Below are positions 21,544-56,387 of a DNA stretch of 64,000 bases, piece by piece. A program made the translations under genes and the position numbers. The stretch covers positions 96,001 through 160,000 of the forward strand of contig OY970343.1 of the NCBI GenBank assembly GCA_963717525.1, read 5' to 3'. Origin of the DNA: an uncultured Methanoregulaceae archaeon. Its GTDB lineage: Archaea > Halobacteriota > Methanomicrobia > Methanomicrobiales > Methanospirillaceae. Below the pieces are notes generated by a model that did not search any database, was not told the origin of the DNA, and saw nothing but the letters and a program-made list of their open reading frames with translations. Position 1 is the stretch's first letter. Every line of letters starts with the position of its first letter.

Positions 21544-21546
21544 GAT

Positions 21547-25501: not shown

Positions 25502-25526
25502 GTCCTCTAGGATTATCCTAGAGGAC
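25502..25526. repeat. Perfect 12-bp inverted repeat abutting the first Xer-like site
   Basis: GTCCTCTAGGAT-T-ATCCTAGAGGAC. Confidence 0.8.
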
Positions 25527-25552
25527 TTCTTTTAATTCCTATTAAAGGAATA
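25525..25552 (+). other. dif/Xer-like site, spacer TTCCTA
   Basis: ACTTCTTTTAA-TTCCTA-TTAAAGGAATA. Confidence 0.7.
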
Positions 25553-25776
25553 ACGTAAAATCTAAAATTTTAGAGAGATCTCTGCCTAGAGAATCGCTGG
25601 AAAATCGAACCGGAAACCGGGCGGGACATTGAGCCCCTCAACTTATCAAATCCTATCGCTCGGATCCAGTTTGCGGCCTGTATTTTTCCCGCGGTTTAGG
25701 ATGTATGGAACTTTTCAAAAATGAGAGATGAACTGAGGCTGATACTCCACTGCCTGTCATGAAATCCGCGGCATTA

Positions 25777-27003
25777 TCAGAACTCCCTCATTATCTTTAT
25801 CGCACAAAATTCCCCGCACATTGTGCATTCCGCCTCACCATCAGATAACTCGCGCGCCCTCCCGGGATCCATGGAACACCGGATCTGGCCTTCGCGATCG
25901 AGCGCTGCCCGTAGTTCAGAGACAGTTTTATCCACAGCGTCACGGCCGTATTTTACCGTATCACCAATATGGGCTGCAATCCGGAAAGCAATGAGCCCTT
26001 CTTTTACCGCAGCCGGTGTGGGAAGGCCGAGGTGTTCGGCAGGAGTTATATAACAGAGATAATCAGCTCCGGCAGCACTTGCGGCACTCCCACCGCACGC
26101 CCCGGCAATATGGTCGTAACCAATGGCAATATCTGTGGGCAATGGTCCGGCAACAAAAAGCGGGAATGGGGACAATCTCTTTTGATACTTGATATATGAC
26201 AGGATACGGTCACTCCGGATATGACCGCCGCATCCTTCGATGATAACCTGAACCCCTCTTGCCAGCGCCCGGTGTGCGAGTACAATATTCTGGCGGATCT
26301 CGGCAACCTGCATTTTGTCTCTCCGGTCATGGATACACCCGCTCCGTGCGGTGTTTCCGAGTGAAAGGACAATATCGTGCTTCCGGCATATCGACAGGAC
26401 TTCATCAAAATGCTCCACGAACGGGTTCTCGCACTGGTGAATGAGCATAAATGCGCTGGTGATCGAACCGCCTTTGGATACCATGCCGAGCACCCGGTTC
26501 TTTTTCCGGAATCCGTCGAGCATCTCTCTGCTGACGCAATGGACAACAACGGAACTTATCCCCGCCTCTGCCTGCTTCCGGAGAGTCGTAAGGATATCGC
26601 CGGAAGTCATCTCCTTAAGGCCATTTTCGACAACAGCCTGGTATACCGGGACGGTTGTAATGGGAAGCGTGGTAACAGAACATATCTCCCCCCGGATTGC
26701 ATCGATGTCACCGCCCATCGAGAGATCGCTTATCGTGTCAGCGCCAAATTCCTCCGCGATCCGGGCCTTCTTGATCTCATCGCCGACATTTATCTTCCCT
26801 GTAGAAGTACCGAGATTGACGTTGATCTTGGTACTGAGACCCCTGCCGATTCCTACCAGCCGGTCACCGCGTTGCATGATCACCGTGCTGCCATCGGCTA
26901 TCTGCCGGCAGAGGGTCGCGGAATTCACACCTTCCTTCTCTGCAACCAGCCGCACCTGTGGGGTAATTATCCCTGTTCTTGCATGCTCAATCAGTGTTTT
27001 CAT
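25777..27003 (-). CDS. thiC: ThiC-family radical SAM enzyme (ThiC or a Bza-like paralogue)
   Basis: KINVNLGTS, GADTISDLS, TVPVYQ, GYDHI, TPAEHLGLP, CTMCGEFC. Confidence 0.85.
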   Translation of the reverse strand: MKTLIEHARTGIITPQVRLVAEKEGVNSATLCRQIADGSTVIMQRGDRLVGIGRGLSTKINVNLGTSTGKINVGDEIKKARIAEEFGADTISDLSMGGDIDAIRGEICSVTTLPITTVPVYQAVVENGLKEMTSGDILTTLRKQAEAGISSVVVHCVSREMLDGFRKKNRVLGMVSKGGSITSAFMLIHQCENPFVEHFDEVLSICRKHDIVLSLGNTARSGCIHDRRDKMQVAEIRQNIVLAHRALARGVQVIIEGCGGHIRSDRILSYIKYQKRLSPFPLFVAGPLPTDIAIGYDHIAGACGGSAASAAGADYLCYITPAEHLGLPTPAAVKEGLIAFRIAAHIGDTVKYGRDAVDKTVSELRAALDREGQIRCSMDPGRARELSDGEAECTMCGEFCAIKIMREF

Positions 27004-27220
27004 CGTGCACTCGTTCCGGAATATCCGGTTAGTTGTGGGGGTTCAAAGGATATGGATTCTGACTTTTATGTCCGCACCGGATCTTCTAACAGTACCGATA
27101 TGGATACAACCAGAATTGACCAAAAACACTTGTCATGAATCAATAAATAATTGGCTTTGTAGAAGACCTTCCTTCTCCGAAGTAAACAACTGACCTCAAA
27201 AAGTTAAGGTACGGTGTATC

Positions 27221-27248
27221 CCTACCTTTTATGCAAATAAAAGGAAAT
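27221..27248 (+). other. dif/Xer-like site, spacer TGCAAA
   Basis: CCTACCTTTTA-TGCAAA-TAAAAGGAAAT. Confidence 0.72.
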
Positions 27249-27596
27249 ATCGTGTTATTCAGTTCTGGAACCAATACAATTTACATCTGAAAATTATTGA
27301 TAATAATTAATCTTACTTCAGATGGGGAACTCGAAGAAGAATGGGATTGAGGAAGCCTAGATATATGATGGGTAGGCGAGAATACGCTTGAATAAGTAAT
27401 GTGATACTTACAGGGATAATATCCGGTTTTTCCTGTTACGGGTATTAAGTTTTTCAATCAGAAGTCGAATTTTGGATAAATTTCCTGCATTTTGACCCCT
27501 TGCAGAGGTATGCTTTACATTAATATTATTAAAATAGAGAGTAACATTTATCGGTATATATACTGAATCATTTCACACTTAATTGCTGAGGAAATT

Positions 27597-29159
27597 ATGA
27601 AATTCGATGAAGCTTGTATTGGATCGGGCTTAATGGAAGCCATCACAGTTGGTTTATACGGTAATAATCTGAATTGTTTAAGAGAATATATTCAGAACGG
27701 AATAGATGAAGATGCGAAGAATATCGAATTATTTTTTGAAAATGGCGATCAGGATTTCGTAATAAAAGATGATGGAAATGGGATGAATCGCACTAAATTA
27801 ATCAGCGCATTAAGTATTGGAATATCAGAAAAAACTGAACCTGATATAGGATGGAGAGGAATAGGAATTTGGAGCGGAGTTCCGGTCTCAAAGAAGATCG
27901 TAATTATCACAAAATCGAGAAACAAGCCTATATTAAAGATAGAAATTGATAATGATGTAATACGGAAAGAAATTCCACTCAAAAAACCACTTTTAGACGT
28001 TTTAACCAAAGCGACAACTGATATTGAGGAATTAAAGCCTGGCAAAGATGACTCGTTAGCAAACTCTCATTACACGATTATCCGATTAGAATCAATTTTG
28101 CATACGCAAAAAAGTATTTTTGTTAAAAAGGAGATTAAAAAATATTTAGCCCGAGTAATCCCCATCCCATTTAATGAAGAAACATTTCTTTTTGCACCTG
28201 AGATAAATAAATTATTGAAAGATTCGAATGTAAAATTCCCTCTTGTTAATGTTACTTTCCAAGGAGAGAAAATTTTTAGATTCCCAGAGAGAAGCGATAT
28301 ATTTTTCGAAAAAATTTCAAAAAAAGAGTTTAAAATAGAAGGGGAAGTCGTGGCGATAGGCTGGTTTATCACCCACAAAGAAAATGGGGTTCTTAAAGAT
28401 CCAAATGGTGGTATAATTTTCAAAAAGAAGGGATTCACTATCGGAGATAAACACTTAGTCCACAAACAATTTGAAGGGCATTATGCTCAATGGCAATACG
28501 GAGAAATCCACATAATTTCAAATGAATTGAAAGAAGATACTGCTAGAAATAATTTTGAAAATACTTCTCCGAAACTTGATCCCTTTCTTGAAGATGTTGG
28601 CGCATTCGTTGGACAATTGCATTTACAGAATCAATATCAATCGGCACGTGTCGTAACTAAAGATTTAGCAAGAACTCAAAAATATATCGAAAAGGAGGAT
28701 TTCAGCAGTGCCAAGGAAAAGATAAAAGAAATCACTGGCCGATTGGCAGAAAGGAGGAGTTATCCAGGAGATGATTCATTAAAAGAAATGAAATCGGTGC
28801 TGGATTCAGAATCCACCCAAAATAAAGAAGAATTGACAGAAATCAAAAAGGAACTCGTTGGACAGACGCCGAGTTTGAAAGAAGCAAAAATATCCCATCG
28901 TGAATCAACAATTATGAGTTTGCCGAAGCCAGTTAGGGATCATATCCCCAAAACAAGGAAAAAAGGAAAGCTCGATCTTCAGAGTAGTTTAACAGATTCT
29001 ATTAGAGATAAATTGAAAGAACAAACTGCATCCTCATCCAATGAAATTCATGAGTTAACTAGAGAGGCTTTTGGATGGGATATAATAAAAGCATCCAATA
29101 AACCTCCCCTCCTTACAATAGATCCTACATACAATAATCAAAACCAGCAGGATTCTAGG
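27597..29159 (+). CDS. GHKL (Hsp90/MORC-like) ATPase, 3' end cut by IS481
   Basis: LREYIQNGID, IKDDGNGM, GWRGIGIWSG; AT-rich; ORF runs into the IS end. Confidence 0.8.
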
Positions 29160-30181
29160 TGTAGAGTGCCACAATTAATGTCCGATTTGTTGACAGAGTT
29201 TATGTCCGCTTGATAGACATTTTCTGTTTTTATTAAAATTAATTTCGTTGTGATAGACTGATGTCGGAGTCATCCAGTTCAGGATCTCCTGCTTTCTCCA
29301 GTTGTTGTACTGGTGGTCGAAGGACCAGAGTTCCCGTTTGAAGTGGCTTAACGAATAGAATTCCTTGAGGGCAATGAGTTCCTGATAGAGAGTCTTGTGA
29401 TACCGTTCAATCTTGCCACGGCCACGCGGGTTGTACGGCCGGCCGAAGATCAGTTTGATACCGTTTTTCTGTGCTTCAGCTTTGAAGACTTTTGAGACAA
29501 ACTGTTTCCCATTATCGAGATAAATTTCACGAGGGATTCGTCCGGTGCGGAGCGCCCAGCGAAGAGCGTTGACCGCTGATGCAGCATCTTTGTGAAGATA
29601 GACCTTGCTTTTCACCCGATACCGGGAGCAGTCATCAGTAAAACCGGTGACATAGACCTTGCCGACACCCCGGATACGAAACTGGAACGTATCACCCTGC
29701 CACATGCTGTCAACGTGACGACGTTGGAATCGTTTGCCGGCTGGCTGAGGTTTTGCTTTGACACGAATGAGAAGTCCATGCTTTTTGAGGATACGATGGA
29801 CTGTCCTCCAGGAACAGGCCAGATCAAACTGGTACTTGATACGACGGGCGCCCCATGCAGGATATTTCTCTTTGAGCCGGATAATTCGTCGTTCCAGTGA
29901 CGGAGATATTGCCCGAGGGGATCGTTTCGGCCCGGTCTTTTTGGGTCGCAACCCATCCACCAGGTCTTCACGATGGGCCTTGGCCCAGCGTCTCACCGTC
30001 CTTTCGGAGATGCTATACGTCTCTCCGATCTCTCGTGCGCTTCGTATTCCTTCTTCATAGAATACGACTGATTTGGTTCTGATTTCCATGGTCGCTTTCA
30101 CCCGCAAGCACCTCTTCGGTGCTCTTGAAAGCGGACATAAATACTGTCACTGTTTTAGGACAGAAACTCTGGCACTATACA
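29160..30181 (-). mobile_element. IS481-family insertion sequence
   Basis: TGT...ACA ends with imperfect IR TGTA.AGTGCCA.A and internal TTTATGTCCGCTT. Confidence 0.9.
29175..30107 (-). CDS. IS481-family DDE transposase
   Basis: HTH, WGARRI, WQGD, DDCSR, DNGKQF, GKIER. Confidence 0.92.
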   Translation of the reverse strand: MRVKATMEIRTKSVVFYEEGIRSAREIGETYSISERTVRRWAKAHREDLVDGLRPKKTGPKRSPRAISPSLERRIIRLKEKYPAWGARRIKYQFDLACSWRTVHRILKKHGLLIRVKAKPQPAGKRFQRRHVDSMWQGDTFQFRIRGVGKVYVTGFTDDCSRYRVKSKVYLHKDAASAVNALRWALRTGRIPREIYLDNGKQFVSKVFKAEAQKNGIKLIFGRPYNPRGRGKIERYHKTLYQELIALKEFYSLSHFKRELWSFDHQYNNWRKQEILNWMTPTSVYHNEINFNKNRKCLSSGHKLCQQIGH

Positions 30182-30352
30182 ACTATCTTTTGAGAATTGT
30201 TTTTAATTTGTTGAGCACTATGAATTACCCCAGGTAAAATATTCTTTCTATATTCATCAATCATTTTTTTTCTTGCATCAATTAGATCCATCACACACCA
30301 TTTATTTTCTGTCATTTCTTTTTGTTATTACGGAAGATAAAGTAGACTCTCA

Positions 30353-30380
30353 CATTCCTTTTATTTGCATAAACAGAAAA
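30353..30380 (-). other. dif/Xer-like site, spacer TGCAAA (reverse)
   Basis: CATTCCTTTTA-TTTGCA-TAAACAGAAAA. Confidence 0.68.
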
Positions 30381-30411
30381 AGACAATTTATTATTAGTAA
30401 CTCCATAAATT

Positions 30412-30439
30412 CTCTATTTTAATCTGAATTAAAATATTT
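30412..30439 (+). other. Degenerate Xer-like site, spacer TCTGAA
   Basis: CTCTATTTTAA-TCTGAA-TTAAAATATTT; context matches 33734. Confidence 0.5.
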
Positions 30440-30534
30440 GTAAATCATGAAAATGGGGCTATCCCCTTGACTCTATCGCACAAAAGAGTTCAGTTCCTCT
30501 AAAATTCCGATATGGTGAAATTATTATCTTGAAT

Positions 30535-32295
30535 TCATTTTCTTCTTTGGGTTATCTTAAAGAAAATACATGTCACGGCGATACCTGCCAAAGCCGAGGT
30601 GAAGGATAATGGCGTCGTAGGTGTTCCGGTCGTAACGGGTAGTGTTGGATTTACTCGCCAAAATGCATCCGGGATTGTTGAATTTGTTGGATTCAACGGG
30701 ATTATTATAGCGAAAGTCTGATTATCAATAGTCACGTTCTCCATCCCCCAATCTCTTGATACGGATGTAATTACATTCGAGGAAAATGTCGTGTCTGGTC
30801 CTAAAATGGGTATTATCAGAGAGTCGGTCTGATTATCAGCACTCACATCAACTATTGCGATACCGCTTGTTTCGGGGATAATAGTGGTGGAATTTGTGCC
30901 ATCCATTAATGTCCCGTATAACGGTTCGAGTCTGACATTCCCTTCCGGGGCTTCAAAAACAACAGGTATATCTGGCGGTTTGAAATACGTCAAATTAATA
31001 TAACTACCGTCAGAAGCGTAGAATAGATCAGCTCGGATTGCATTCTGTTGGTTTGGGTACAAATAACTGGAGGAAGTTATCCGCAGCTCCAGCCACGGGG
31101 TATAGTTGGCAGTGTAATCGGTTGACATTTCAGAGAAATGCGAAGATGGGTTATCATTCGAACCCCACCAGTTATACCGTGCATCAACTGGGGCCCATGC
31201 GTAAATGGCCGTCCCTCTATCATCATTCACGAGTCTGCTGGTTAGAATAAATACGGAAGCCCCATCGGAACCTCCTATGTCTGCAATAGCGCCCCCGCGC
31301 CCCCCGTTTTCTACCGAACAGTTTTCAATAGTTGAGGAAAATATGGCAATCTCACCTCGTGCGCCAATTGCACCTCCGCCGCTATTTTTTTCGGATACTC
31401 CGGCTGTGCAGTTTGTAAAAGTCGAAGAGGTTATGTCAAGACTGTCTCCATTCACGGGGAGCGGGGGTTCTGAGGAGATCGCACCTCCGCCTCCTTGGGC
31501 GATGCAATCTGATATGGTTGAAGAATTAACCACAGTATAATTGGTGGAGTCAATGGCTCCTCCTTGACCTGATGAACAACCTGTTATGAGTGAGGAGATG
31601 ATATTGGCCTCGCTGCCAATAAATTCAATGCCTCCGCCGGCGATCGTTGCTGAGCAGTTTGAAATGGTAGATGAGATAATTGTCAACGAACCACTAGAAA
31701 AAATCGCCCCACCGCTGTATGAGGTTGAACTGTTCATAATGATACACGAGGTAATGAGAAGAGAACCATCAGAATAAATGGCACCGCCATCAGGAGTATT
31801 TGATAGCTGCCCCCCGATAAGGGTCAGGTTATCAAGAGTGAGCGAAATTCCTCTTTGATTATAAAAAATCCTGCCGGTCCCTTGCGCATCAATAAGAGTG
31901 TTTTTTGCGTTCCCCCCCACTCCGACATTGGCCCGGATAGTTATGTCTTTTTTAATCGTAACGTTGTTCTCATAATACGTTCCTGGATTCAGTATAATCG
32001 TATCACCGGCGTTTGCCCTGGCGATTGTCATATTGATGATGTGAGGCGTACCTGGACTAATAGAAATTTCTGTTGCCGCTATTGGTACGAGAAGGATAAT
32101 AATTGCAATGACCAGAGCGCAAGGCCAGACAAAATTTCGGAGAAGATTCTGAATGGGACAAAACGGATTAAAAAGAATACTATTGTAAGGTACCTTCGTT
32201 AATGGGAGAAATATCACCTGATCTTTTTCTCGAACTGCCACCTGACAATTATTTGAACGCCGACAAAATCGGGAAGACCATTCGTGGATTCTCAA
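30535..32295 (-). CDS. Adhesin-like beta-helix surface protein (true start probably downstream of 32295)
   Basis: GDTIILNPGTY, repeated GGAI, NWWGSN, C-terminal TM plus basic tail. Confidence 0.8.
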   Translation of the reverse strand: MRIHEWSSRFCRRSNNCQVAVREKDQVIFLPLTKVPYNSILFNPFCPIQNLLRNFVWPCALVIAIIILLVPIAATEISISPGTPHIINMTIARANAGDTIILNPGTYYENNVTIKKDITIRANVGVGGNAKNTLIDAQGTGRIFYNQRGISLTLDNLTLIGGQLSNTPDGGAIYSDGSLLITSCIIMNSSTSYSGGAIFSSGSLTIISSTISNCSATIAGGGIEFIGSEANIISSLITGCSSGQGGAIDSTNYTVVNSSTISDCIAQGGGGAISSEPPLPVNGDSLDITSSTFTNCTAGVSEKNSGGGAIGARGEIAIFSSTIENCSVENGGRGGAIADIGGSDGASVFILTSRLVNDDRGTAIYAWAPVDARYNWWGSNDNPSSHFSEMSTDYTANYTPWLELRITSSSYLYPNQQNAIRADLFYASDGSYINLTYFKPPDIPVVFEAPEGNVRLEPLYGTLMDGTNSTTIIPETSGIAIVDVSADNQTDSLIIPILGPDTTFSSNVITSVSRDWGMENVTIDNQTFAIIIPLNPTNSTIPDAFWRVNPTLPVTTGTPTTPLSFTSALAGIAVTCIFFKITQRRK

Positions 32296-32373
32296 TATGT
32301 TTAGAGATTTATTTCACAGTATTTATAATGTATCCATCTGATATACAGGAAACGGAACATATCGAGGAATTAT

Positions 32374-33645
32374 ATGAACCCTGGTGATTCACCCTCAGGA
32401 AACGGATTCATCCACCCAATCCCATTTTGGATTTTTGTCTGTACCGCCCTCGGACTTATCCTTCTTATGGTAGGTCAGGTATCGGCACTAAATTTCAGCC
32501 AAACCGGAGGCACCAACGGGTTGGAGGGCAAAGCAGCAGTTGTCAATTATCTTATGAGTTCTAACGGAACCCTTTACGCCGCTACGGGAAACGGTGTTTG
32601 GACGTGGGACGGCTCGTCATGGTCTGAAGTGGGAGGATCTTCCGGGCTGACTGGCTATGCTCTCGTCGTTAACCAACTAGTTAGTTCAAATGGACTTCTC
32701 TATGCCGCGACAGCCGGGAGCGGAGTCTGGGCATGGGACGGCTCTTTGTGGTCCCAAGTCGGCGGCCCTCAGGGACTACCTGGAATGTCGTCAAGTGTCA
32801 ATTGTCTTCTCATTTTTAAAGGAACTCTTTATGCAGGAACATGGAACGATGTATGGGCCTGGAACGGAGCTTCATGGTCGTTAGTAGATAAAGTTGGATC
32901 TTCCCCGAGCACCAGGACATTGTATAATGTCATTAGTTTGGTTGATAAGGATGGGACCATCTATGCAGGGACGGATAACGGCGTATGGATGTGGGACGAC
33001 TCATCTTGGGAAACTGTTGGAAACACATCTCTAGCTGTGCATGACGGATCTGAAATTTCCAATCTTTACGTTTCCGATGGCACTCTTTATGCGTCAACAT
33101 TCGGGGGCGTTTTATCCTGGGATGGCACGTCTTGGAATAAGGTTGGTAGCTTCACCGGGTCAATAGCAAACCCGCTTACTATCTTTCAACTGAGCAGTTC
33201 TCAAGGAAATCTTTACGCGGGAACAACTTATGGTGTATATGAATGGGACGGATCATCTTGGTCCTCAATTAGCGAATTTAACGGGAATAAAACGATTGAT
33301 CCATCTATTTTGGCGAGTTCGTTCGGGGTGAATTTAACAACTGCTCCAACGACATTCAGGAATCAAACCTTGATTTCTAGCATATTGATTACACCAGACG
33401 GGATTTTGTATGCTGGAGTTGCGGGAGGTGGGGTTTGGGCTGCTCCTCTTCAGACTCTGAATCAAACCGCCGTTAATCATGAACCAATATCCAATAATAC
33501 AACAGAACCGACAACCGCTGAGGGGACCGGAGCTGTCCCAAATCAAATGACGACTGCTACCGCTGCACCCGTCCCTCTTCAGATTCCCCTTGCCGGAATT
33601 GGCACAGTGATAGTTTTATCAATGATCGCGAAAAGAAGAAAATAA
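32374..33645 (+). CDS. Beta-propeller repeat surface protein
   Basis: Repeated GTLYAGT..GVW.WDGSSW; Thr-rich linker, TM, KRRK. Confidence 0.8.
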   Translation: MNPGDSPSGNGFIHPIPFWIFVCTALGLILLMVGQVSALNFSQTGGTNGLEGKAAVVNYLMSSNGTLYAATGNGVWTWDGSSWSEVGGSSGLTGYALVVNQLVSSNGLLYAATAGSGVWAWDGSLWSQVGGPQGLPGMSSSVNCLLIFKGTLYAGTWNDVWAWNGASWSLVDKVGSSPSTRTLYNVISLVDKDGTIYAGTDNGVWMWDDSSWETVGNTSLAVHDGSEISNLYVSDGTLYASTFGGVLSWDGTSWNKVGSFTGSIANPLTIFQLSSSQGNLYAGTTYGVYEWDGSSWSSISEFNGNKTIDPSILASSFGVNLTTAPTTFRNQTLISSILITPDGILYAGVAGGGVWAAPLQTLNQTAVNHEPISNNTTEPTTAEGTGAVPNQMTTATAAPVPLQIPLAGIGTVIVLSMIAKRRK

Positions 33646-33733
33646 AATTTTCAAGAAGTTTCATTCACTATTTGCCGAAGTTTAATATGCATTAAAATTT
33701 TAAATTGGGATGAAAAGAAATTTCCTATAAATT

Positions 33734-33761
33734 TTTTCCATTAATCTGAATTAAAAGAATG
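33734..33761 (+). other. dif/Xer-like site, spacer TCTGAA
   Basis: TTTTCCATTAA-TCTGAA-TTAAAAGAATG. Confidence 0.62.
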
Positions 33762-33780
33762 ACGATACGATCCACCCATA

Positions 33781-33808
33781 TTTTCCTTTTATTTGCATAA
33801 AAGGCAAG
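33781..33808 (-). other. dif/Xer-like site, spacer TGCAAA (reverse)
   Basis: TTTTCCTTTTA-TTTGCA-TAAAAGGCAAG. Confidence 0.72.
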
Positions 33809-33877
33809 CAGAATTTTTGACTTCATAGAAAAAGCTCAATCGGTATACTGTTGCGTTTACGGTCAGTGATCGATTTT

Positions 33878-35727
33878 TTACTGCACATCGGCGAGCCGGT
33901 ACGTCCCCTTCGGCACGAGGATCTCAAAGCGTGCTCCCTTGCCCGGTTTACCGGTCTCACGGATTGTGATTTTGGAGATAGCAAGAATTTCCCGGGACAG
34001 GGCCAGACCGAGCCCGGTGTTCTTCCCAAAACCCCAATCGAAGATATGCCCCTTATCCTCGCCAAGGATGCCTTCACCATCGTCCTCACACACCACGATA
34101 TAAACGCCATCGACTTCCTCAGCAAAGAACTGGATGGTGGTAATCTTCCTGCCATACCGTACTGCATTCTCAATCAGGTTGTAAAATACCTTAAAAATCA
34201 GCGGATCAGCAAATAATTCTATTCCGGCAGATAGATCGTTTTTCACCTGGATATTTCCGAGTGAGGCTTGCTTTGCTGCAGTATCCACAAGAGTGCGTAT
34301 ATCCTGCCATGCAGGAGCAGTTTCTCCTATTATAGTATATGTTTTCGCGAACAGACTTATAGAGGAAATACGAGTACTTACCTGCTTGATCCACGTGAAA
34401 TACTTCTCAAGAGCTGGATCCGGGATCTTCTCGTGAAGTAATTCAACAAATCCATTCAAAGCCAGAATCTGATTGTCGATGTCATGCCGCGTGATGTTGG
34501 TAAGGAGGGCAAGCTTCCTGTTCGCCTGCCGAAGCGCCTCCTCCGCTCGCTTGCGCTCGGTGATGTCAATGATGATGCCCCGAAGCCCGGTGATCCTGCC
34601 ATTCACGACAATCGGTGACGAGTAGATGGTGACGGGAAACGTGCTCCCGTCTTTCCGCAGGGCCAGATATTCACCTGTATGTTCCGTTCCTCCCTTTCCT
34701 TCAATCATGGTGCGGAAATCCACCGAGACCCGTTTCAGGTCATCGGGAGCAATCATCTGCCAGATGGTAAGCCCATGCGTGAAATCATCCTCTCTATACC
34801 CGAATCGTTCGAATGCAGTGTGGTTCGAGTACGTCAGGTTACCCTCTGTGTCCGCTTCATAGACAACCTGGGGCAGGAGGTCTGCAAGCTCGCGGAATCG
34901 ATTCTCGCTCTCCCGCAACGCCCCCTCTGCCTGTTCCCGTTCGGTAAGGTCCCGGATCGACTCGATCGCACCGATGACCTCATCTTGCCGGTTGTAAAGC
35001 GGGCTTGCTTTGCCCATAAGCGTGACCGGTTTTCCCTGAGGACGAGGAAGGGTTGTTTCGGCGATCAGGACATCCTTCCTGTGAATGATATGGGTATATT
35101 TTTTGGCGATGATCTCGTCGGATTCATAGATCAGATTGATAAGTATTGGTTGCCGTTGCCCGTAGAACGGGATTGCGTACTCGTAATCTCCCTTCCCCAG
35201 CATCGCCGCGGCCGAAACCCCTGTCATCTCTTCAATGGCCCGGTTCCAGCTATTACTACGCCCTTGGTATCGATTGCAAAGGTTGCGTCAGGCAGGAAGT
35301 TGATGATATCCGCTTCCCGGCGCTCAAGGTCCCGGATACTGATTTCCGCCTTTCTCTGCTGGACAGCTTGTCGGATCTGGTGCGCGAGCTCGGTGAACTG
35401 TGACTTAGGTTCACCACCCTTCTGGAGGTAAAAGTCAGCGCCTTCATTTAATGCCTGGATGGCAATCTCTTCACGTCCTCGTCCGGTGAAAAGGATGAAC
35501 GGGATGGTATTTCCCGAAGTTCTTACCTTCTTTAAAAATTCGATTCCATCCATGTCCGGCATCTGGTAATCGGAGATGATCGCAGCATATGGCCGCTTCA
35601 CGAGCATACCGATCGCCTCTTTGGCAGAGGTTGCGGTATCCACGCTGAACTCACCGCTCAGCTCCATGTAGAGCTTGGTTAGGTCAAGCAGGGAATCTTC
35701 ATCATCAACATAAAGAAGATTATACAA
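33878..35727 (-). CDS. Hybrid receiver-PAS-histidine kinase (frameshift near 35249)
   Basis: REC in 35224-35727 continues as PAS-PAS-HK in 33878-35227. Confidence 0.85.
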
Positions 35728-36058
35728 AATACGACATCCGTAATTGGCAGCATAGGGTATTTTCCTTTCTGCGGTTATTATACGTTTTTTTAATCTTTAG
35801 ATTCTATAAAATCAAACCTTATCGGCAGCTTTCCGAAACCGTCTGATGGACTCTCAGACGTTGGCGTTGGCTTTCAGCGGCAGGGACAGGATTGAGGAAG
35901 GGCAAGAATAATCGGTGTCCCGTTTACAAAAGACTTTTACAATGTGTAATGTCGGCCATCAGTCACCAACCGCAACATCATCAGAATGGGAAATCCCAAC
36001 AAATGCGGATATCTTTGGTATTGATCCGGAAAAAAGAAGGGCTGGATGGGATTCGTGA

Positions 36059-36646: not shown

Positions 36647-36715
36647 AGTTCTTCAGTTCCTTTTTTTGTTGAGTGGTTTTACATCCGTATCCGTTGTTTC
36701 ACCGGTTCCGGGAGT

Positions 36716-40861: not shown

Positions 40862-40877
40862 CTTGGCAATCAGCATC

Positions 40878-43661: not shown

Positions 43662-43684
43662 AAGTACAATTTTTAAGTACGGAT

Positions 43685-45516: not shown

Positions 45517-45586
45517 AAGATATTATTGACCGGCTGATTTTTTTGAATCATATTTATAATATCGAATAAACAAGTGATTTTCTATT

Positions 45587-46957: not shown

Positions 46958-47135
46958 CTTTTAGCATAATATCCATCCCGTATAAGGCCTTCATATCTTA
47001 GTTCTATTAGTAGATCTCATAAAAAACAGTCTAGAGTACTCTGGGTTCTGTGACGTTGTCGGAATCTTTAAATAGTCAACAGTGGTGTGCCACGACGATA
47101 TCATTATTATTAAGCCCCGTTAACGCAACAGCATC

Positions 47136-47163
47136 CTTTCCTTTTATTTGCATAAAAACGACT
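47136..47163 (-). other. dif/Xer-like site, spacer TGCAAA (reverse)
   Basis: CTTTCCTTTTA-TTTGCA-TAAAAACGACT. Confidence 0.68.
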
Positions 47164-47198
47164 CATTCTGTGTTGACTGGAAATATAAGGTCGGGATG

Positions 47199-47226
47199 TT
47201 TTCGGTTAATTCCAATTAAAATTGCC
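47199..47226 (+). other. Degenerate Xer-like site, spacer TTCCAA
   Basis: TTTTCGGTTAA-TTCCAA-TTAAAATTGCC; positionally equivalent to 51797. Confidence 0.5.
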
Positions 47227-47605
47227 CTGACAAGTTCTATTGTAGCTACAAGACATTAAAACGGTCAACATTGAGGGGTCATGACGAGGCATTTTGTTGG
47301 TTTCTCGTTAACGCGACATCACCATTTTAAAATTTTTAATGCTATTTTAATTTTTAAAGCCATTATACTTTAAAAATATAAAACACAAGATTTTTATTAT
47401 TGAATTATAATACATCTTATCATAGTCCCAAGAAAATCATATTTCGGTACAGTCATTGAAGAGAATTTGGAAAATGGAGAGGTGGGCTCCCCGATCCTGA
47501 AAATCAGATGAACCCCTCTTGCTCGAAGGCATGAACTAATCCTCTTCTGATATTGAAGAATTATCTGGTCATGCCCTGAAAAACAGCACTGGAGACAATG
47601 AAAAG
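47199..47605 (+). repeat. ~400-bp upstream region duplicated at 51797-52206, including a structured leader
   Basis: Shared blocks CAAGTTCT, AAACGGTCAACATT, GGGGTCATG, CTCGTTAACGC, TCAGATGAACCC, AAGGCATGAA, TCTGGTCATGCC. Confidence 0.8.
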
Positions 47606-50450
47606 ATGAAATTATTGAAATCTTGCGTAATACTGCTCGCGATAGTACTTGCAGTTATCGTAATAGCACCGATAGTGTATGCCGTAAATTACCCGGGTCC
47701 TTCAGTGACGCTCACTGACGCACAAGTGGCAGCACTTGATGTAAATACCATCCAATTGCCACAACTTCATTTCGATAATTCGCAAGCAAAAGTGATTGTC
47801 AATGCTGAGCTCAATCCTGTCGAAACTACACAGTCAACTCAAGTTACCTCGATGGCAGTGTCATCCCAAAGCACTTCGGGTTCAACAGCCCCGGTTGGCG
47901 CAATTATTTATCATTCGCAGGGAGGAGTAACAAGCGTATTTGATTCGAATGGCAATCAGCTGTTTGCTACAAACGACGCCACCGCGGCACTCGTTGCAAC
48001 TCCAAACGGTGAAGCTCCTGCAACATTTGTCCATGAGATTCCTTCCGGCTCCATTGTAAAATATGGAACGAATGGAACGTTTGTTTTCTACAATAGTCAA
48101 TTGATATTAACTCTCGTGAATGAGGGGGGATCTAATTTAGTAAATGAAAATTCCATTGCCGTTCCCTCAGCTGTGTCAGTTCCCGTATCTAGTTGCGGTA
48201 ATTTAAACGGCAATAATTATATAGGCTGGATCGAAGATGCAGAAACCAGTGCCAGTGCTCCAACATCATTGACCAGATTTGAAGCGACGTGGAAAGCGCC
48301 TGAACAAACACCTAATACCACGGAATCGCAGGCTGGACCTCTTGCTATATTTAATGGGATTCAGAATGCGAGCACAGGCGTTACAGATGGGATTATGCAA
48401 CCGGTCCTCAGTTGGGACTATATTCCAAAGGACTTTCCTACCACACCCCGCCTATATTACACAGGCGCTGCTTGGGATTTTCACACACCCAATTCTGGAG
48501 AAGATTCCCTCCATTCCACCCCGATATCGGTTTCCCCCGGAGATACTGTTCGTGGAACTATGGAGTGGAGTCCGTACCTCAAAACGTGGATTATTCAATT
48601 TAGTGACATAAATAACGGAAGGACAACTGAATTTCATTCAAACAGATTTACGACAACCAATCTTCAGTTGTTTATGGCTGTTGAAGCCTCGCAACAAGGG
48701 GTAATAATAAATCCAACTCCAACTGTCCCTAGTTTAAACAATGGATTGACCGGATCTATTCAGCTTCAATAATATCATTATACAAAACAATGGGCAATCA
48801 GTTCCGGTCATATTTTCCCCGGATATTTGTTCATTAGCAACGCAACATTTTAACAGTTTAAATGTCGTTATTAATCCAACCCCATTGAGCGTTTCGCTCA
48901 TTACCCAACCGATTTCCTATACAATCACCGCAACAGCAAACTTCAATGGAGCGATTAGTCCCTCTGGATCTGTTATAGTAGTGGATGGAGCAAGTCAGAC
49001 CTTCACTATCACGGCAAATCAGTGGTATGTGATCGATGATGTCGAAGTTGATGGAACCTCTGTTGGCGGATCTGACCTGCAAACGTTTTCATATACGATA
49101 CCCGATGTAACAGAAGATCATATGATCCATGCGTCGTTCAAACGTGCACAAATCTACACGATAACACCAAATGCCGGATCTGGCGGTTCTATCACGCCGT
49201 CAACCACAGTCAGAGTTCGACAGGGTCAAAGTCAGACGTTCACGATAACACCAGACACCGGTTACGCTATTGAGGATGTCCAGATTGACGCGGGAACTCC
49301 TAATGCCATAGACGCCGGGGCTACAAGCAGTTACACATTTCCCAATGTACAAGCAGACCAAACCATCAGCGCCACCTTTATTCCTACCTATACGATAACA
49401 CCAAGTGCCGGATCTGGCGGTTCTATCACGCCGTCAACAGCAGTCAGGGTTCAACAGGGTCAAAGTCAGACGTTCACGATAACACCAGACACCGGTTACG
49501 CTATTGAGGATGTCCAGATTGACGCGGGAACTTCTAACGCTATAGACGCCGGCGCTGTAAGCAGTTACACATTTCCCAATGTACAAGCAGACCACACCAT
49601 CAGTGCCACGTTCATTCCTACCTATACGATAACACCAAGTGCCGGATCGGACGGTACTATCACGCCGTCAACAGCAGTTACGGTTCGACAGGGTCAAAGT
49701 CAGACGTTCACGATAACACCAGACACCGGTTACGCTATTGAGGATGTCCAGATTGACGCGGGAACTCCTAATGCCATAGACGCCGGGGCTACAAGCAGTT
49801 ACACATTTCCCAATGTACAAGCAGACCAAACCATCAGCGCCACTTTTAATCTGATTCAACCCAATAATCCGATGACGTGGGACTGGTCTTCGCAAGGTTG
49901 GGGTAACTGGCAGTACACCTGGACAGTGTCAGGAACGCAGACTGGGCCCAATTCCCCATTAGGTCCCGAGATCGATAATGGCGTTGGCGTGTTTGGAACA
50001 AACACCAATCTTCTGGCCGGTTCGACTGAGTCTGATGTTACGAATACCTTTACCGATCCTACCGGCACCGGATGGAATACCCTCATATTCAACGGGGCGC
50101 TTGGTGCGAGTGATGTTCCCGGTGGGCGATGGATGACGATTACCGTTAATGGCCAGGAGGTGTTTGGCGCAACAGAATTACAGACACCACCAGGGGATGC
50201 CGATCAGCCGTTTACGATTGTTGCATCATTCCCCCAGACTTCTTCAGCAATGGTTACCCTCTCCCAAGGGCAAGATCCTGCCTGGGGGCCAGATTTCCCG
50301 ATGTATTGCAATAGTTTAACTATTGGCGAAGAAAACACCCAACAAATGAGTACTATGACTGCACTTGTGTCAAAGCCGAAGATCACCTTCACTATACCGG
50401 ACGGTAGTGAATGGAGTGGAAATAAGACGACCTCTAAAGTCGGAGCTTGA
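47606..50450 (+). CDS. Secreted protein with InlB-B-like repeats (frameshift near 48761 joins two ORFs)
   Basis: Signal peptide; second frame is open from ~48764 into 48885; three near-identical 234-bp repeats. Confidence 0.78.
49153..49850 (+). repeat. Three intragenic 234-bp tandem repeats
   Basis: YTITP.AGS.G.ITPST...QTFTITPDTGYAIEDVQID...TISATF three times. Confidence 0.9.
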
Positions 50451-50611
50451 AAGGAGGATACATCGAGCGAGATAGATACCTTCAACGACAATATGGGATA
50501 AATGAGCACCTCCCTTTTCGATAGATAAATTCATGAAGATAAGGAAGGACGATTTACAATACTTACTCCACAAATAGCAAAAAAGTCTGCTGAATATGAA
50601 AAGAGGAAACC

Positions 50612-51175
50612 ATGTTTAATAATTCGTTGACGATCCTTCTGCTAGTCTCCTGCATTCTTATTTCAGGATGCGTTTTCACTCCCTCAGTCAACAATCTTTC
50701 AACCAATGTATCGATTAATCAATTCACCCTTAACGAGTCAGTCTCAGGAAACGTAACCCCAATTATTCCTCCAATCCCTGGAGACTTTCCTGTTTATATC
50801 AGTGAAAAATATATCAACAACGGTTCTGGGACTATTGTCATGAATTATTCTGAGATCGTTGCTCATGACTATACTAATATTCCGGTTTCGCCAAGGTTTC
50901 CCGGTGGAAAACTTGCACCATTTTGTGGGTATTCAGGTAATCTTTCTAAAATCTCCGAGATTGCTATGAATGATAACCGAACTCAAAAAATTCTCAAGGA
51001 TGGTGGGATAATTGAGGATGTGAATGTATACGCCGCTCAACAAATGCTAACACATAATGAAAATCCTTGCGATGGTCTATATTTAGCTCTATATATTAAT
51101 ATTTACATCAGTCAAACAAAGGTCATTGTGGTGAATGAGAGCGCGATGAATGTTGTTGATATAGAAACATTATAA
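50612..51175 (+). CDS. Putative lipoprotein
   Basis: Lipobox-like ISGC after a hydrophobic leader. Confidence 0.7.
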   Translation: MFNNSLTILLLVSCILISGCVFTPSVNNLSTNVSINQFTLNESVSGNVTPIIPPIPGDFPVYISEKYINNGSGTIVMNYSEIVAHDYTNIPVSPRFPGGKLAPFCGYSGNLSKISEIAMNDNRTQKILKDGGIIEDVNVYAAQQMLTHNENPCDGLYLALYINIYISQTKVIVVNESAMNVVDIETL

Positions 51176-51340
51176 AATAGCGAGAGACGGGTGTTGATAT
51201 TGGCGGAGGTATTTCCTTTGAGTCACGATAACGCATCAGAATCGCACGGTATATTGCTATTCACCCATTCAAGATTCTAATATAACGCTCTGGAGGTAAT
51301 ACTGATCCTCCCCATGGTTTCCAAAGAGAAAGAGATTCAT

Positions 51341-51807
51341 ATGTTAATAATTCGTTGACGATCCTTCTGCTAGTCTCCTGCATTCTTATTTCAGGATGCG
51401 TTTTCACTCCCTCAGTCAACAATCTTTCAACCAATGTATCGATTAATCAATCCGCACTTAACAAGTCAGTCTCAGGAAACCTAACCCCAATTATTCCTCC
51501 AATCCCAAGAGACTTTCCTGTTTATATCAGTGAAAAATACATCGACAACGGTTCTGGCACTATTGTCATGAATTATTCTGAGATCGTTGCTCATGACTAT
51601 ACTGATATTCCGGTTTCACCAGAGTTTGTTAATCCTCATGCTCCTTTTTGTGGATACTCGGGTAATTCCTCCGATTTTTCCGAGATCGCTATGAACGATT
51701 ACCGCGTTCAAAACATACTCAGAGGTGGTGGAATAATTGAGGATATAGATGAATGGGTAATTTTTCGAAGCCATTTATTTTTCGCGCACCAGAACCCTTT
51801 CCTTTAA
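51341..51807 (+). pseudogene. Tandem duplicate of the 50612 lipoprotein, 3'-truncated and ending in a Xer-like site
   Basis: Near-identical 5' part with a 1-nt deletion after ATG; diverges after GGIIED. Confidence 0.7.
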
Positions 51808-51824
51808 TAACAATTAAAAATGTC
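51797..51824 (-). other. dif/Xer-like site, spacer TTGTTA (reverse)
   Basis: CTTTCCTTTAA-TAACAA-TTAAAAATGTC. Confidence 0.68.
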
Positions 51825-52206
51825 TTGGCAAGTTCTGTTGTAGGGGTAGTATATTAAACGGTCAACATTTGGGGTCATGTTGAAGGTCATTTTATTGGAT
51901 CTCGTTAACGCATCATCGCCCATTAAAATTTTTAATGTAATTATAATTTTAATATGTTGTTATAACGTTAAAATAAAAAACACAATATTTTTATTTATCC
52001 ATTTACAAACCATTCTCTTGCCAGTCCTAGACAAATCAAAGTTTGGTAGTGTCGTTCAAACAGAATTGAAAAAACAGAGAGACGGGTTCACCAGTCCTGA
52101 ACGTCAGATGAACCCTTCTTGCCCAAGGCATGAATCAATACTCTTCAGACAATGAAGAATTTTCTGGTCATGCCTCTAAAAAGCAACACCGGAGGTAATG
52201 ATTGAC

Positions 52207-54744
52207 ATGAAATTGGTAGATTGAGGAGTTATACTTCTTGTATTGATTCTTGTGACCATTTTTGTAGTGCCCGGGGTGGGGGCAACCCAGAACAACCCAA
52301 CTCCTGACAACGGGATATGTGATAACAATCACGGTCAAGGATGTGCCGTCAAGCAGCCTTATCCGCCATGTGACAACGATCAAAACAATCACTATTGTGA
52401 TTGGCATGCGGATGATAGCTGGTGTAAAAATCACGGACAAGGTAAAAATTTTGTCAGTGTCAAAAACGCAACCGTTGCTGCATCATATCTCGTGGGCGAA
52501 ATATCCAATGAACAATCGACTGATTACACAGATTGGAATGGGGCAACAGTAGTAGAAAATACGACATATTACGATGTGAATGGCGTTGAATCCGCGTACT
52601 CGTTCGATGTCATTGTCAACGGCCAATATGATGGATATATCATGGTCTCTGCAACTCGGGATAATTTTCCCATCCTCGAATTCTCAAAAGGAATTACCCC
52701 GGACAAAGATCCAGGGACTCTCATTAATGCAGAGAAACTGGCTCAAACTCAAATAAAAGATCCCAGAGAAGTTTTGGGCGAAGGGCAGCCAATTTATCTC
52801 GGCGCAACATTCTTCGATATGGCATATCCGGTAGAACTCAATAATACAAGATCCGGCCCGCAACCAATCCCTGATGACCAAATACTGGTTGATCTCATTA
52901 GGGGGGCCATTGCAGAACAAACACCAGAACAACTAAACGCAACCGAAAGACAAGAACTGGCGCAAATACAGCAGCAGAATATTGCCGAAGCAAACTCCGA
53001 ATGGAATGCTCTTGATACTGCAGGAAATTCCAATTCCGGTTCAACCACATCTATGAATGCAAATTCCGTAAAAGCAAATGTTGCAGTAATCGGGGGTGGT
53101 GGTCAGCCCACTAATTCCAATCCTATAGTCGGTGTTCCGGCGTATTTATGGAGATATGGTTGTGCCCCAACTTCCACAGCTATGGTCTTGGGATATTGGG
53201 AGAACCAAGGATTGACAGAATTACCCGCTGTTACCGATACTACTTACGGAAATCCATTAAATGTTGACTTAGCAGAGGTTATGGGTACAGACATTGTGGA
53301 GTCGGGATATTGGTGGGATTGTATACTCAATCCCTTGGATAAAAATTGTGGTGGCACATCGCCTGAGGGGATATCTACAGGAATAACAGATATTTTAAGT
53401 AATAACCTTATCAGTGGATGGTCACAATCATCAAACTTTGAACATGTTGAAGGTTACAGTGGCGATATAAATGAGATAAATAATGGATATCCGTTCCTCC
53501 TTAGTCTGGATGGAGGGGGTGCTCCTGTGGGGAGCACTACAAGCTATGGACAACATGTTATTGCCGTCATCGGTTACGATTCTTCTGAGAACACTTTAAT
53601 AGTTGATGATACATTTCATACTGTTCCGGTCGAGATAAGGTATGGTAATTGGCAGAATGCAATGTATTATAAAATCGAACATGGGGGTGATTATACGATC
53701 ATCGCAAGTGCAGGACCTGGAGGTAATATTTATCCTTCTGGTTCTCAATTAGTTGTGCCAGATTTTAGTCAATCTTTCAGTATCGTTCCGAACACGGGTT
53801 ACGTTATTCAAAATGTTGAAACGGATAATGATGTAGACCATGGGCCTATAGTTATTTACACCTTTAGCAATGTAGTGGCAGATCATTCCATCAGCGCTAC
53901 ATTCACACCTATTACCTATACCATCAGCGCCAGCGCAGGAACGGGGGGTAGTATCACTCCCTCCGGATCTGTTAGTGTTCCGTTTGACGGAAGTCAAACG
54001 TTCACCATTACGCCAGCCTCCGGTTACGTTATCAGCGATGTCCAAGTTGATGCGGGAACCCCTGAGTTTGTAGATGCTGGGGCTGCAAGCAGTTACACCT
54101 TTAGCAATGTAATTGCAAGCCATACCATCAGTGCCACATTCCAGCAGATCCCCACCACCTACTCCTCGTCATGGGACTGGTCATCACAAGGTTGGGGTAA
54201 CTGGCTGTTCAATTGGTCGGTATCAGGAGATCAAACAGGCCCCAATTCTGCGTTAGGTCCCGAAATCGGTAACGGTGAAGGCGTATTTGGCACAAATACC
54301 AATCTCCTTGCCGGTTCGACTCAGTCAACTGTCACGAATACCTTCATCGATCCGACCGGAGTCGGATGGAATACCCTCACATTCAGTGGTGCGCTTGGTC
54401 CGAGTGACGTCCCCGGCGGACGTTGGATGACGATTACCGTCAATGGTCAGCAGGTATTTGGCGCAACAGAATTAGATACGCCACCGGGAGATTCCGGTCA
54501 ACCGTTCACGATTACTGCCTCATTCCCGCAAACATCTTCCGCTTTAATTACCATCTCTCAGGGGCAGGATCCCGCGTGGGGTCCAGATTTCCCGATGTAT
54601 TGCGATAATTTGGCACTGAGTAATGAAAACACTCAAGAAGCAAACACAATGACCGCTCAGGTGTCAAGTCCGAAAACAACCTTCACTATCCCTGATGGGA
54701 GCGAATGGGCCGGAAACACGACGAATTCCTCTATCAAAACCTGA
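52207..54744 (+). CDS. Secreted papain-like (C39/C10-type) peptidase with InlB-B-like repeats; TGA at codon 6
   Basis: Prodomain GYIMVSA..PILEFS; YGCAPTSTAMVLGYW; HVIAVIGY; VDDT. Confidence 0.78.
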
Positions 54745-54834
54745 AAAGAATGTAAATAGACCGAAGTGAATAACGTCACTTGAATAAAGGATCCAATTAA
54801 TCCTTTTTCAATCAGTCTGACCGGTAGATGAGAT

Positions 54835-56143
54835 ATGAAAACGCGAAGGTATTTTGGATTTCGTGGTGTCAGCACAGGATATACCCGGCGAGCTGTAAAA
54901 TTATTCCTTGGCTTCTTCCTGCTGATCCTGCTTCTAATCCCGACTGCATCAGCGCAGGATATGATGTTCCGATACGACGCCAGTCGGTACTGGAGATTAC
55001 AGTCCAGTCGCCGGCACGACAGGCACCACGATATCGCAGATCTGGAGTTATGCGACCGGAAACGCTGTGTTTTCTGGCCCGACGATAGCGAATGGTGTCG
55101 TATATATCGGAAGTTTTGATGACAAGGTATACGCGCTGAATGCTTCTACCGGGCTGCAGCTCTGGAATTTTACGAATGGAGGTGATTCGCATTCCAGCCC
55201 TGCGGTAGCGAACGGCGTGGTGTATGTCGGGAGTGGGAATTACAACGTATACGCACTGAACGCTTCTACCGGCATGAAACTTTGGAATTATACGACCGGA
55301 AGCACTGTGGCATCCAGCCCTGCGGTAGCGAACGGCGTGGTATATGTCGGGAGCGAGGATCACAACGTATACGCACTGAACGCTTCTACCGGCATGAAAC
55401 TTTGGAATTATACGACCGGAAGCACTGTGGCATCCAGCCCTGCGGTAGCGAACGGCGTGGTGTATGTCGGGAGCGAGGATCACAACGTATACGCACTGAA
55501 CGCTTCTACCGGCATGAAACTTTGGAATTATACGACCGGAAGCACTGTGGCATCCAGCCCTGCGGTAGCGAACGGTGTTGTATATATCGGGGACGGGAAT
55601 GGAAAAGTATATGCGCTGAACGCCTCCACCGGGACGCAGATCTGGAATTATACGACTGAAAACTCTGAGTATTATGAGTATATCACCAGCCCTGCGGTAG
55701 CGAACGGCGTGGTGTATGTCGGAAGTGATGATGGCAAGGTATATGCGCTGAACGCCTCCACCGGGACGCAGATCTGGAATTATACGACTGAAAACTCTGA
55801 GTATTATGAGTATATCACCAGCCCTGCGGTAGCGAACGGCGTGGTGTATGTCGGAAGTGATGATGGCAAGGTATATGCGCTGAATGCTTCTACCGGGCTG
55901 CAGCTCTGGAACTATGCAACCGGAACATTTGTAAGTTCCGACCCGGCGGTAGTGAACGGCGTTGTATATATCGGGGACGGGAATGGAAAAGTATACGCGC
56001 TCAACACCAGGGTCCCAAATGCAATCTCCCCCATAATATATATTGTTTTTTTTGCATTTATCGTGCTTCTTTGTGTGTATTTTGCTTATCAGATTGTAAA
56101 AAAAAGGAGGAGAAGGGTGCTGATAAGTTCGCGGGACGATTGA
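54835..56143 (+). CDS. PQQ-like (BamB-type) beta-propeller protein (frameshift near 54986)
   Basis: MFRYD.SRTG start, SSPAVANGVVYVGS.D..VYALNA.TG..W repeats, C-terminal TM. Confidence 0.88.
55195..55882 (+). repeat. Near-perfect intragenic 120-bp and 132-bp tandem repeats
   Basis: Identical lines recur at 120-bp period from 55261 to 55560 and at 132-bp period after 55607. Confidence 0.9.
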
Positions 56144-56359
56144 ACCGGATGCAAATCCATCAGATATTCCTCAAGAAATCTGGTTCTGATAAGTTAGCGT
56201 TGTTGACCGATTTTTCATATCGTTAAAATTATCCTGTCGACCACCGAAGTAACAAGACCTATAACCTCCTTTAACTGTTATCGCCCGGACCCGGTTTACG
56301 GGCCAGATTTTTCTGGCGGTTTTCCCGATATAAAATTCTCTAAAGTTTTGGATATTACA

Positions 56360-56387
56360 CATTCCTTTAATAGGAATTCAAGGAAAA
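56360..56387 (-). other. dif/Xer-like site, spacer TTCCTA (reverse)
   Basis: CATTCCTTTAA-TAGGAA-TTCAAGGAAAA. Confidence 0.72.

Follow-up and report, generated by a model that had tools for sequence, protein, structure and literature searches.

Gene modules in an archaeal integrative element appear to be exchanged mainly between 28-bp sites with matching spacers

Does the six-base centre of a recombination site influence which partner that site will join? The question is raised by a stretch of 64,000 nucleotides (the window; G000:C1:96001-160000) from an uncultured Methanoregulaceae archaeon, whose genome (G000) is a single contig of 2.29 Mb. The window holds a 34.4-kb integrative element with a tyrosine integrase, P0001, at one end, and the cargo of this element is divided into modules by 28-bp sites consisting of two 11-bp arms around a 6-bp spacer (11-6-11). 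An earlier note on the same DNA had read the spacers as an address code that predicts specific excisions and inversions.

Past recombination at these sites, with a tendency to keep the spacer, is supported by comparison of related sequences, and most swaps of modules appear to have joined sites whose central spacers match. We take the locus to be a genuine archaeal variant, apparently not described before, of module shuffling between matched spacers, carried within an integrative element.

Sites of the array and past exchange between them

The arms lie near TTTTCCTTTWA and TWAAAGGAAAA and are near-symmetric, one pooled matrix scoring both, and the orientations do not strictly alternate. An 11-6-11 site with the expected spacer and orientation was found at all 16 of the 16 positions proposed earlier, and the copy near 30311, described as decayed, has a damaged left arm. 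In the array, 12 matches scored at least 16, compared with a mean of 0.12 and a maximum of 1 in 100 local-composition shuffles, a partly circular comparison in that the site matrix was trained on these same sites. A fixed arm pattern, with up to two mismatches allowed, gave 20 matches in the genome, all 20 within arrays, and the reversed pattern used as a control gave none. Of 120 spacer pairs, 15 were identical, a count reached in no draw out of 20,000 (null 1.08), and 27 were within one mismatch (null 12.9, P = 0.003).

The layout of the array is given below; A denotes spacers of the TGYAAA family, B/C those of the TTGTTA-TTGCTA-TTCCTA-TTGTAA-TTCTAA family, and G the spacer TACGAG.

25525..25552, + strand: site TTCCTA, facing inward and followed by a conserved C-type end
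25527..27247: thiC module (thiC at 25777-27003, - strand), lying between a C site and an A site
27221..27248, + strand: site TGCAAA (family A)
27597..29213, + strand: HATPase_c_3 gene, overlapped by an rve-type insertion sequence (IS) at 29156-30181
30311..30439: triple junction, with a decayed TTGTTA at 30311, TGCAAA at 30353 (-) and TCTGAA at 30412
30535..33645: two divergent genes for anchored surface proteins, between the direct-repeat pairs 30353/33781 and 30412/33734
33734..33808: double junction, TCTGAA at 33734 and TGCAAA at 33781 (-)
33878..40784: signalling/acetate module with histidine kinase, receiver, YaaH, acs, PAS protein and MreA-like regulator
40834..40905, + strand: double junction, TTGTTA at 40834 and TTTCTA at 40878
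41049..41537, - strand: GNAT module, with a 90% copy at 1,121,889-1,122,509
41605..41632, + strand: site TGTAAA (family A)
41942..43537, + strand: beta-helix, adhesin-like surface protein with signal peptide and C-terminal anchor
43634..43712, + strand: B-to-A linker, two sites 51 bp apart, with homologs at 1,285,514, in genomes G113 and G114 and at locus L049
47136..47226: double junction, TGCAAA at 47136 (-) and TTCCAA at 47199
51797..51824, - strand: site TTGTTA
56360..56387, - strand: site TTCCTA, facing inward, at the boundary of homology with a sibling element

Most junctions had been said to hold two sites; this was the case, as double or triple junctions, for 5 of 10, and unlike sites do lie close together, at a spacing of 42-63 bp (noted as 44-63). 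TTCCAA at 47199, previously set apart as a class, differs from TTCCTA by a single base, and the right flanks of 47199 and 51797 are 74% alike over about 420 bp, so that a separate class is not warranted. The cargo labels assigned earlier were fair for the adhesin at 41942-43537, which resembles archaeal beta-helix surface proteins (atlas score 0.90), and for the HATPase_c_3 protein at 27597-29213.

Within the genome, five partner switches were observed, four with the same spacer and one with a spacer differing by one base. The window element and its sibling, a 41.4-kb element at 1,271,502-1,312,893, are shared from the integrase end to 56360 and 1273843, respectively, both of which are TTCCTA sites, and have no common cargo beyond. 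The 1.7-kb thiC module has a 97% copy at 1,120,062-1,121,782 with both borders at sites; homology ends at TTCCTA in both copies at the C site and at TGCAAA and TGTAAA, respectively, at the A site. Homology between the GNAT copies stops at an A site with TGTAAA in both, and both copies of a 1.05-kb duplicate begin at a TTGCTA site. Since segments of 97-99% identity have switched partner at intact sites in one genome, the exchange was recent.

The thiC module is the sole unit shown to have moved whole. With unlike spacers at its two ends, it would have moved by double crossover, not as a predicted circle.

In a blind count over 73 inter-locus alignments, 4 of 97 non-edge ends fell inside a site on both sequences (chance 2e-5 per end); the other 93 lay outside sites and were mostly ordinary ends of gene homology. 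When at least 90% flank identity was required, spacers were identical in 7 of 9 partner switches and differed by one base in one and by three bases in another; for unrelated half-sites, identical spacers occurred in 346 of 19,869 pairs. Eight of the nine switches came from one comparison, after five G-end pairs had been dropped from it as their partners were probably homologous, and the ninth came from another. Spacers of C ends differed by 0.77 bases within genomes (35 pairs, mostly from G000) and by 2.1 bases between genomes (218 pairs).

Strictness of the proposed spacer code and rival explanations

The reading we consider rather likely is that two layers of tyrosine recombination are nested, with spacer-preferring module exchange inside an integrative element. 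In the outer layer, P0001 would move the 34.4-kb element into T-tract/A-tract targets, leaving a 9-bp repeat. In the inner layer, the backbone arms end in the inward-facing TTCCTA sites, and further 11-6-11 sites divide the cargo; a recombinase acting in trans would cut at the edges of the 6-bp spacer, and exchange would be completed best between spacers that match or differ by a single base.

One crossover between elements would swap everything beyond the site, as between the window element and its sibling, and two crossovers at unlike sites would swap a single module, as for thiC. The 42-63-bp linkers between unlike sites could act as adaptors between spacer families. Same-family pairs within one array could excise or invert DNA, probably rarely, and the families would drift and leak.

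The non-redundant set of 115 sites, to which an earlier site search contributed a preference for TTSCTA, contained 34 spacer types, of which eight accounted for 82 sites. At no more than one mismatch these eight fell into three groups (TTCCTA/TTGCTA/TTGTTA/TTGTAA/TTCTAA, TGYAAA and TACGAG). When rare types were included and two doubtful ones left out (34 to 32), 31 of the 32 formed one network at the same threshold. Arm type followed spacer family: 33 of 42 arms of A/G sites began with TA (three with TT, six with other bases), and 85 of 96 arms of B/C sites began with TT.

A spacer code, though a soft one, with three broad families (A, B/C and G), is supported by these related sequences. The address code proposed earlier was right in kind, as families exist and spacers match at most switches, and it was too sharp in its five orthogonal classes, B and C being bridged by TTGCTA, which is present in the genome.

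Several observations weigh against the two-layer reading. The comparative evidence comes from few, related genomes. Spacers that are reversed or three bases off occur at L043:6126, L049:6061 and L197:16444, mixed arms occur at junctions 1121757 and 1122482, and one 93%-identical linker pair differs by three spacer bases, all of which spacer-independent joining would explain. Strictness is further questioned by the B-to-A linker, which carries TTGTTA in G000 and TAGGAA in G113 and G114. No host dif with similarity to the arms was found: the arm pattern was not matched in 36 of 61 genomes, and each of four dif candidates was rejected.

The region 27170-47169, with 12 sites, was also compared with contigs from four runs. 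Of the 25 joints, 15 were listed, and no predicted circle or inversion was represented among them. For run X7, 11 of the 12 sites were spanned by unbroken contigs at about 74-82x, depth stayed even from module to module (74-85x), and no listed joint coincided with a site. As contigs drop rare variants and two of the four runs may be the source sample, only frequent switching is excluded by this comparison. One contig of run X10 joined 47131 to 41606 with four extra bases at a depth of 5.5; it is not in G000 and matches no predicted product.

The modules could instead be stacked non-autonomous mini-transposons of the Tn916 type with fixed ends, their six bases being coupling sequences that need not match and the spacer classes arising by copying within a closed target pool. 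Such an account would accommodate the 17-21 different spacers of C ends beside about 100 bp of conserved flank, the unlike ends of the thiC module together with the A-type outer arm at the C site of its second copy, and the reversed spacers. Free exchange should, however, scramble spacers relative to arms and ends, yet an exact A or G spacer was found in 0 of 41 clustered C-type ends, although 30 of the 115 sites have one (P about 4e-6 if ends were independent, which they are not). The exception to this rule is one C-like linker end with TTTACA. Likewise, 13 of 13 G ends keep G-like spacers, and 8 of 9 partner switches stay within one mismatch. The count of partner switches alone cannot separate a strict rule from a Tn916-type rule; the arm and end associations, drawn from related sequences, appear to carry more weight, and we regard the transposon account as unlikely. 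Slightly more credible, though still doubtful, is a dedicated archaeal system of multi-address cassette exchange, carried in integrative elements, with an uncharacterised recombinase that has a symmetric site of its own, spacer families as parallel channels and adaptor linkers that turn one address into another, operating independently of host Xer/dif.

Both remaining explanations are considered quite improbable. According to the strong form of the earlier note, modules for surface proteins and defence would undergo active, programmed phase variation in living populations, through excisions and inversions directed by five orthogonal addresses. The geometry of its listed excisions and inversions is valid, identical direct and inverted pairs being present, and a junction at 1,285,566 resembles that of the predicted 41605/43685 circle (linker, TGTAAA and a 41605-like right half), with a modest right-half likeness that 5 of 500 shuffles reach. 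Against this stand the contigs, in which unbroken sequence covers 11 of 12 sites and no listed joint lies at a site, and the one-base steps joining B, C and TTCCAA. The sites could also be relics of a lost recombinase system or regulator-binding marks at module borders, a view favoured by the lack of an enzyme tied to them, by decayed copies such as that at 30311 and by the lack of rearrangement among the joints listed for the contigs; the nearly identical segments that switch partner at intact sites speak against it, and a regulator site needs no spacer families.

The outer element, candidate recombinases and neighbouring features

The boundaries and backbone of the outer element are as follows.

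24362..58726: integrative element carrying the whole array, 34.4 kb, with the same two ends as the sibling
24362..24370: far end, 9-bp direct repeat TTTTTGAAA, with end motif CACTA..TAGTG at 24375-24388
24414..25346, - strand: AAA/SMC-type ATPase of the far arm, with homologs adjoining H|C sites at loci L044, L051 and L052
25503..25525: H hairpin (TCCTCTAGGA twice), a conserved half-site flank, fold z -6.9
56459..56923, - strand: 154-amino-acid (aa) open reading frame (ORF), which also follows related integrases in genome G025
57295..58632, - strand: tyrosine integrase P0001, 445 aa, PF00589 over cut-off
58718..58726: integrase end, second copy of the 9-bp repeat TTTTTGAAA, with a palindrome at 58697-58714

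The GC content of the element is 44.8%, compared with 56-57% outside. Its sibling has identical end types and other cargo: 56325-58726 (2.4 kb, containing P0001 and the 154-aa ORF) is repeated at 1,271,502-1,273,907 with 99.2% identity, and the far-arm segment 24361-24895 is repeated at 1,312,359-1,312,893. In genome G109 the flanks of the sibling locus are directly joined with a 9-bp overlap, constituting an empty site; 1,271,502-1,312,893 is thus a 41.4-kb insertion and the window element (24,362-58,726) its sibling. For the window element itself, a right-flank search of 107 relatives (25 loci retrieved) revealed no empty site.

Taken together, two element copies with unrelated flanks and one empty site indicate targets that are AT-rich and non-identical, and the same 9 bp occurs at both junctions of each copy. 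Unlike the module arms, the element ends consist of T-tract/A-tract cores accompanied by motifs of the CACTA..TAGTG type. The catalytic R/K/HxxR/H/Y motifs of P0001 are all legible in its sequence, its scores lie under the XerA and integron-integrase cut-offs, and it is most likely the mobiliser of the outer element. The integrase of a third element, at about 1,101,300-1,156,480, is 36% identical to P0001, and the 154-aa ORF gave only a weak ribbon-helix-helix lead (score 0.86, bar 0.9). P0001 homologs were observed in 32 of 72 genomes of the genus, and elements with T-tract/A-tract ends form an archaeal family.

The H hairpin family comprises 16-18 half-sites and is a frequent marker of the far arm; an accessory protein may bind to the hairpin. 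In 5 of the 20 rows scanned, an H|C site was located 119-1185 bp inward from a P0001-type element end, which indicates a real link between the sites and these elements. Minimal units of 49-50 bp, with two half-sites around the H hairpin, occur at L039:5233-5310 and L043:6126-6202, flanked on each side by a C-type end or cargo.

For the recombinase of the modules, host XerA is our tentative first choice. The profile NF040815 scored over cut-off in G000, and XerA was present in 9 of 10 site-bearing genomes checked. The same arms also lie beside integrases only 29-40% like P0001, with different end motifs of their own, an arrangement that suits a conserved trans-acting enzyme.

The P0001 family is a less probable choice: 18 of 19 homolog loci, picked by integrase alone and extending at least 12 kb downstream, had no site, a homolog of 76-79% identity had none nearby, and no P0001 homolog was found in five site-bearing genomes. 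By a hand-compiled genome list in which kin are not independent, P0001 homologs occurred in 9 of 15 site-bearing and 23 of 57 other genomes (P = 0.24), and integrases that target transfer RNA (tRNA) genes in 14 of 15 and 32 of 57, respectively (P = 0.007). The tRNA-targeting integrases, one of which is encoded at 1,319,437-1,320,690 in G000, are placed at tRNA genes with targets of their own, only about 2 of 17 loci having a site close by, and of the enzymes considered they are the least probable; some other enzyme is slightly less improbable. A 206-aa mini-recombinase was present in 0 of 71 relatives, and a profile search of G000 found no further recombinase.

Concerning the dif candidates, that at 1827595 (8 of 40 genomes) lies directly upstream of a gene start and is therefore probably a promoter, that at 823481 was recovered in 0 of 5, and matches to that at 1395999 were at chance level. 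A palindrome conserved in 25 of 71 genomes, situated 66-81 degrees from cdc6 and flanked by a pair of conserved genes with the same orientation, was rejected as dif and was not found in G000.

Further arrays were located in the genome at about 504-526, 1105-1156 and 1274-1312 kb, with scattered sites at 1708-1714 kb. A scan of 54 of the 88 listed ORFs revealed signalling, pilin plus secretion, SIR2-STAND, TBP and redox-enzyme cargo. The C-end pattern was present in 13 of 401 genomes of the order, all of one family, and in 25 metagenome loci, and a search over the genomes of 185,579 species with the site pattern yielded nine stretches, all from Methanoregula or Methanoregulaceae. The C-end pattern had no match in viral contigs, and 25440-25700 had none in plasmids. 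In a 20-kb DNA search of 107 relatives, the same array was seen in no strain among the matches listed, which were dominated by acs and the IS.

At 312,969 of the genome (L195:7969), perfect module-type arms enclose a 7-bp centre just after a tRNA-linked integrase, and in an 80% homolog from genome G032 (L129:10565) a site with a 6-bp centre occupies the same place.

A separate repeat class, elements of 80-95 bp with GGTTCTG-type inverted ends, includes the proposed sixth spacer class CGGGAC, which was rejected on this ground.

41737-41815: GGTTCTG-type element
44918-45011: GGTTCTG-type element
47044-47135: GGTTCTG-type element, abutting site 47136

A half copy lies near 51243 and many more occur in other arrays, often abutting 28-bp sites; the duplicated module at 1,117,677-1,118,718 stops at such an end. 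The ends resemble IS6-family repeats, and two IS240-type transposases are encoded in the genome. Insertion sequences reportedly target pdif sites, to which the GGTTCTG-type elements at the sites are a parallel.

The genome carries three copies of the rve-type IS, all identical. Parts of the surface-protein region are duplicated internally, 50616-51019 pairing with 51344-51744 and 47200-47613 with 51798-52214, and two neighbouring modules open with the same 420-bp leader (74% identity). Single-base contig differences in runs X1 and X7, at 35247 and 37666, suggest assembly errors; since the acs frameshift near 37666 is missing in the contigs, this gene is probably intact. Errors may likewise account for the frameshifts of xerA and of the sibling integrase (near 1,272,400).

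Direct repeats at 24203 and 58750 were rejected as attachment (att) sites in favour of the true ends at 24362 and 58726. They belong to a dispersed repeat with a period of about 64 bp, located in the window at 24203-24245 and 58717-58795 and in the genome at 19, 280,138, 508,635, 1,369,753 and 1,590,713, and the right junction of the element falls within one copy. The sibling sits inside a tRNA-Phe island, and G109 matches this island over 7.9 kb with 99.99% identity.

A cysteine gene cluster (18625-24198 and 58966-62933) lies on both sides of the window element and contains two different tRNA-Cys, a SepSecS-family gene, thiI, cysS, cysK and cysE. At L043:6175-16219 a homologous cluster is unbroken, with two tRNA-Cys in tandem and thiI abutting a C-type end, so that this cluster, too, may be cargo. 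In the window, genes of the SepSecS family, of DUF2099 and of related kinds point to a methanogen.

Comparison with known systems

If the two-layer reading is true, methanogens of this family have a means of passing genes for surface proteins, signalling, cofactors and defence from one integrative element to another. The array offers substrates with 0, 1, 2 and 3 spacer mismatches for gauging the strictness of an archaeal tyrosine recombinase, and the enzyme, once named, could give a cassette-exchange tool for methanogen genetics.

Integrons, archaeal ones included, have accessory genes arrayed beside a tyrosine recombinase, and this arrangement is shared. The array is nevertheless not an integron: P0001 has no TIGR02249 match, the two junction regions folded in search of attC-type hairpins were no more stable than shuffled sequence (z -1.08 and -1.32), and the modules are multi-gene and in both orientations. 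A shufflon or phase-variation locus would show coexisting orientations, and none were seen in the contigs of the four runs, where rare forms drop out.

Tn916 has unlike 6-bp coupling sequences at its two junctions, whereas both junctions of each copy here carry the same 9 bp. No Pfam match to a conjugation module or to the arm-binding domain of IntTn916 was present among 42 window proteins scanned. A tyrosine integrase at one end and AT-rich, non-identical targets are shared by the outer element with Tn916/Tn1549 as described in PMC8138268.

Archaeal XerA is, according to PMC2958812, PMC5357621 and PMC8371274, a single recombinase that acts on a symmetric 11-6-11 dif, cuts at the spacer edges and does not need FtsK. 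The symmetric 11-6-11 architecture is common to both, whereas dif is single-copy and conserved and the sites here are numerous, lie in clusters within mobile DNA and do not occur in most relatives. In the literature searched, which included part of PMC8371274 and covered papers outside their supplementary tables, no archaeal spacer-matched module array was found.

In Acinetobacter, inversions and deletions between pdif sites whose spacers are identical or one mismatch apart have been detected by polymerase chain reaction, single modules are replaced by two crossovers, and an occasional two-mismatch fusion has been inferred, as presented in PMC13141974 and PMC9947245; chromosomal dif-module islands exist there as well, according to PMC12907356.

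The array differs from these in its archaeal host, its integrative element in place of a Rep_3 plasmid, its near-symmetric arms without XerC/XerD alternation, its long conserved ends (C end, H hairpin) and 42-63-bp adaptor linkers, and in sites for which no matching host dif was found. A backbone bounded by inverted sites (here 25525+/56360-, and also 1104995+/1156209-) is common to both systems, although the sibling element has one C site and one G site. Shared as well are the 28-bp 11-6-11 sites bounding accessory modules. Exchange here may likewise favour near-identical spacers, 8 of 9 switches being within one mismatch, with exceptions. By analogy, the array would work like Acinetobacter dif modules, some features of membership failing, and the idea of the spacer as an address is already known in bacteria.

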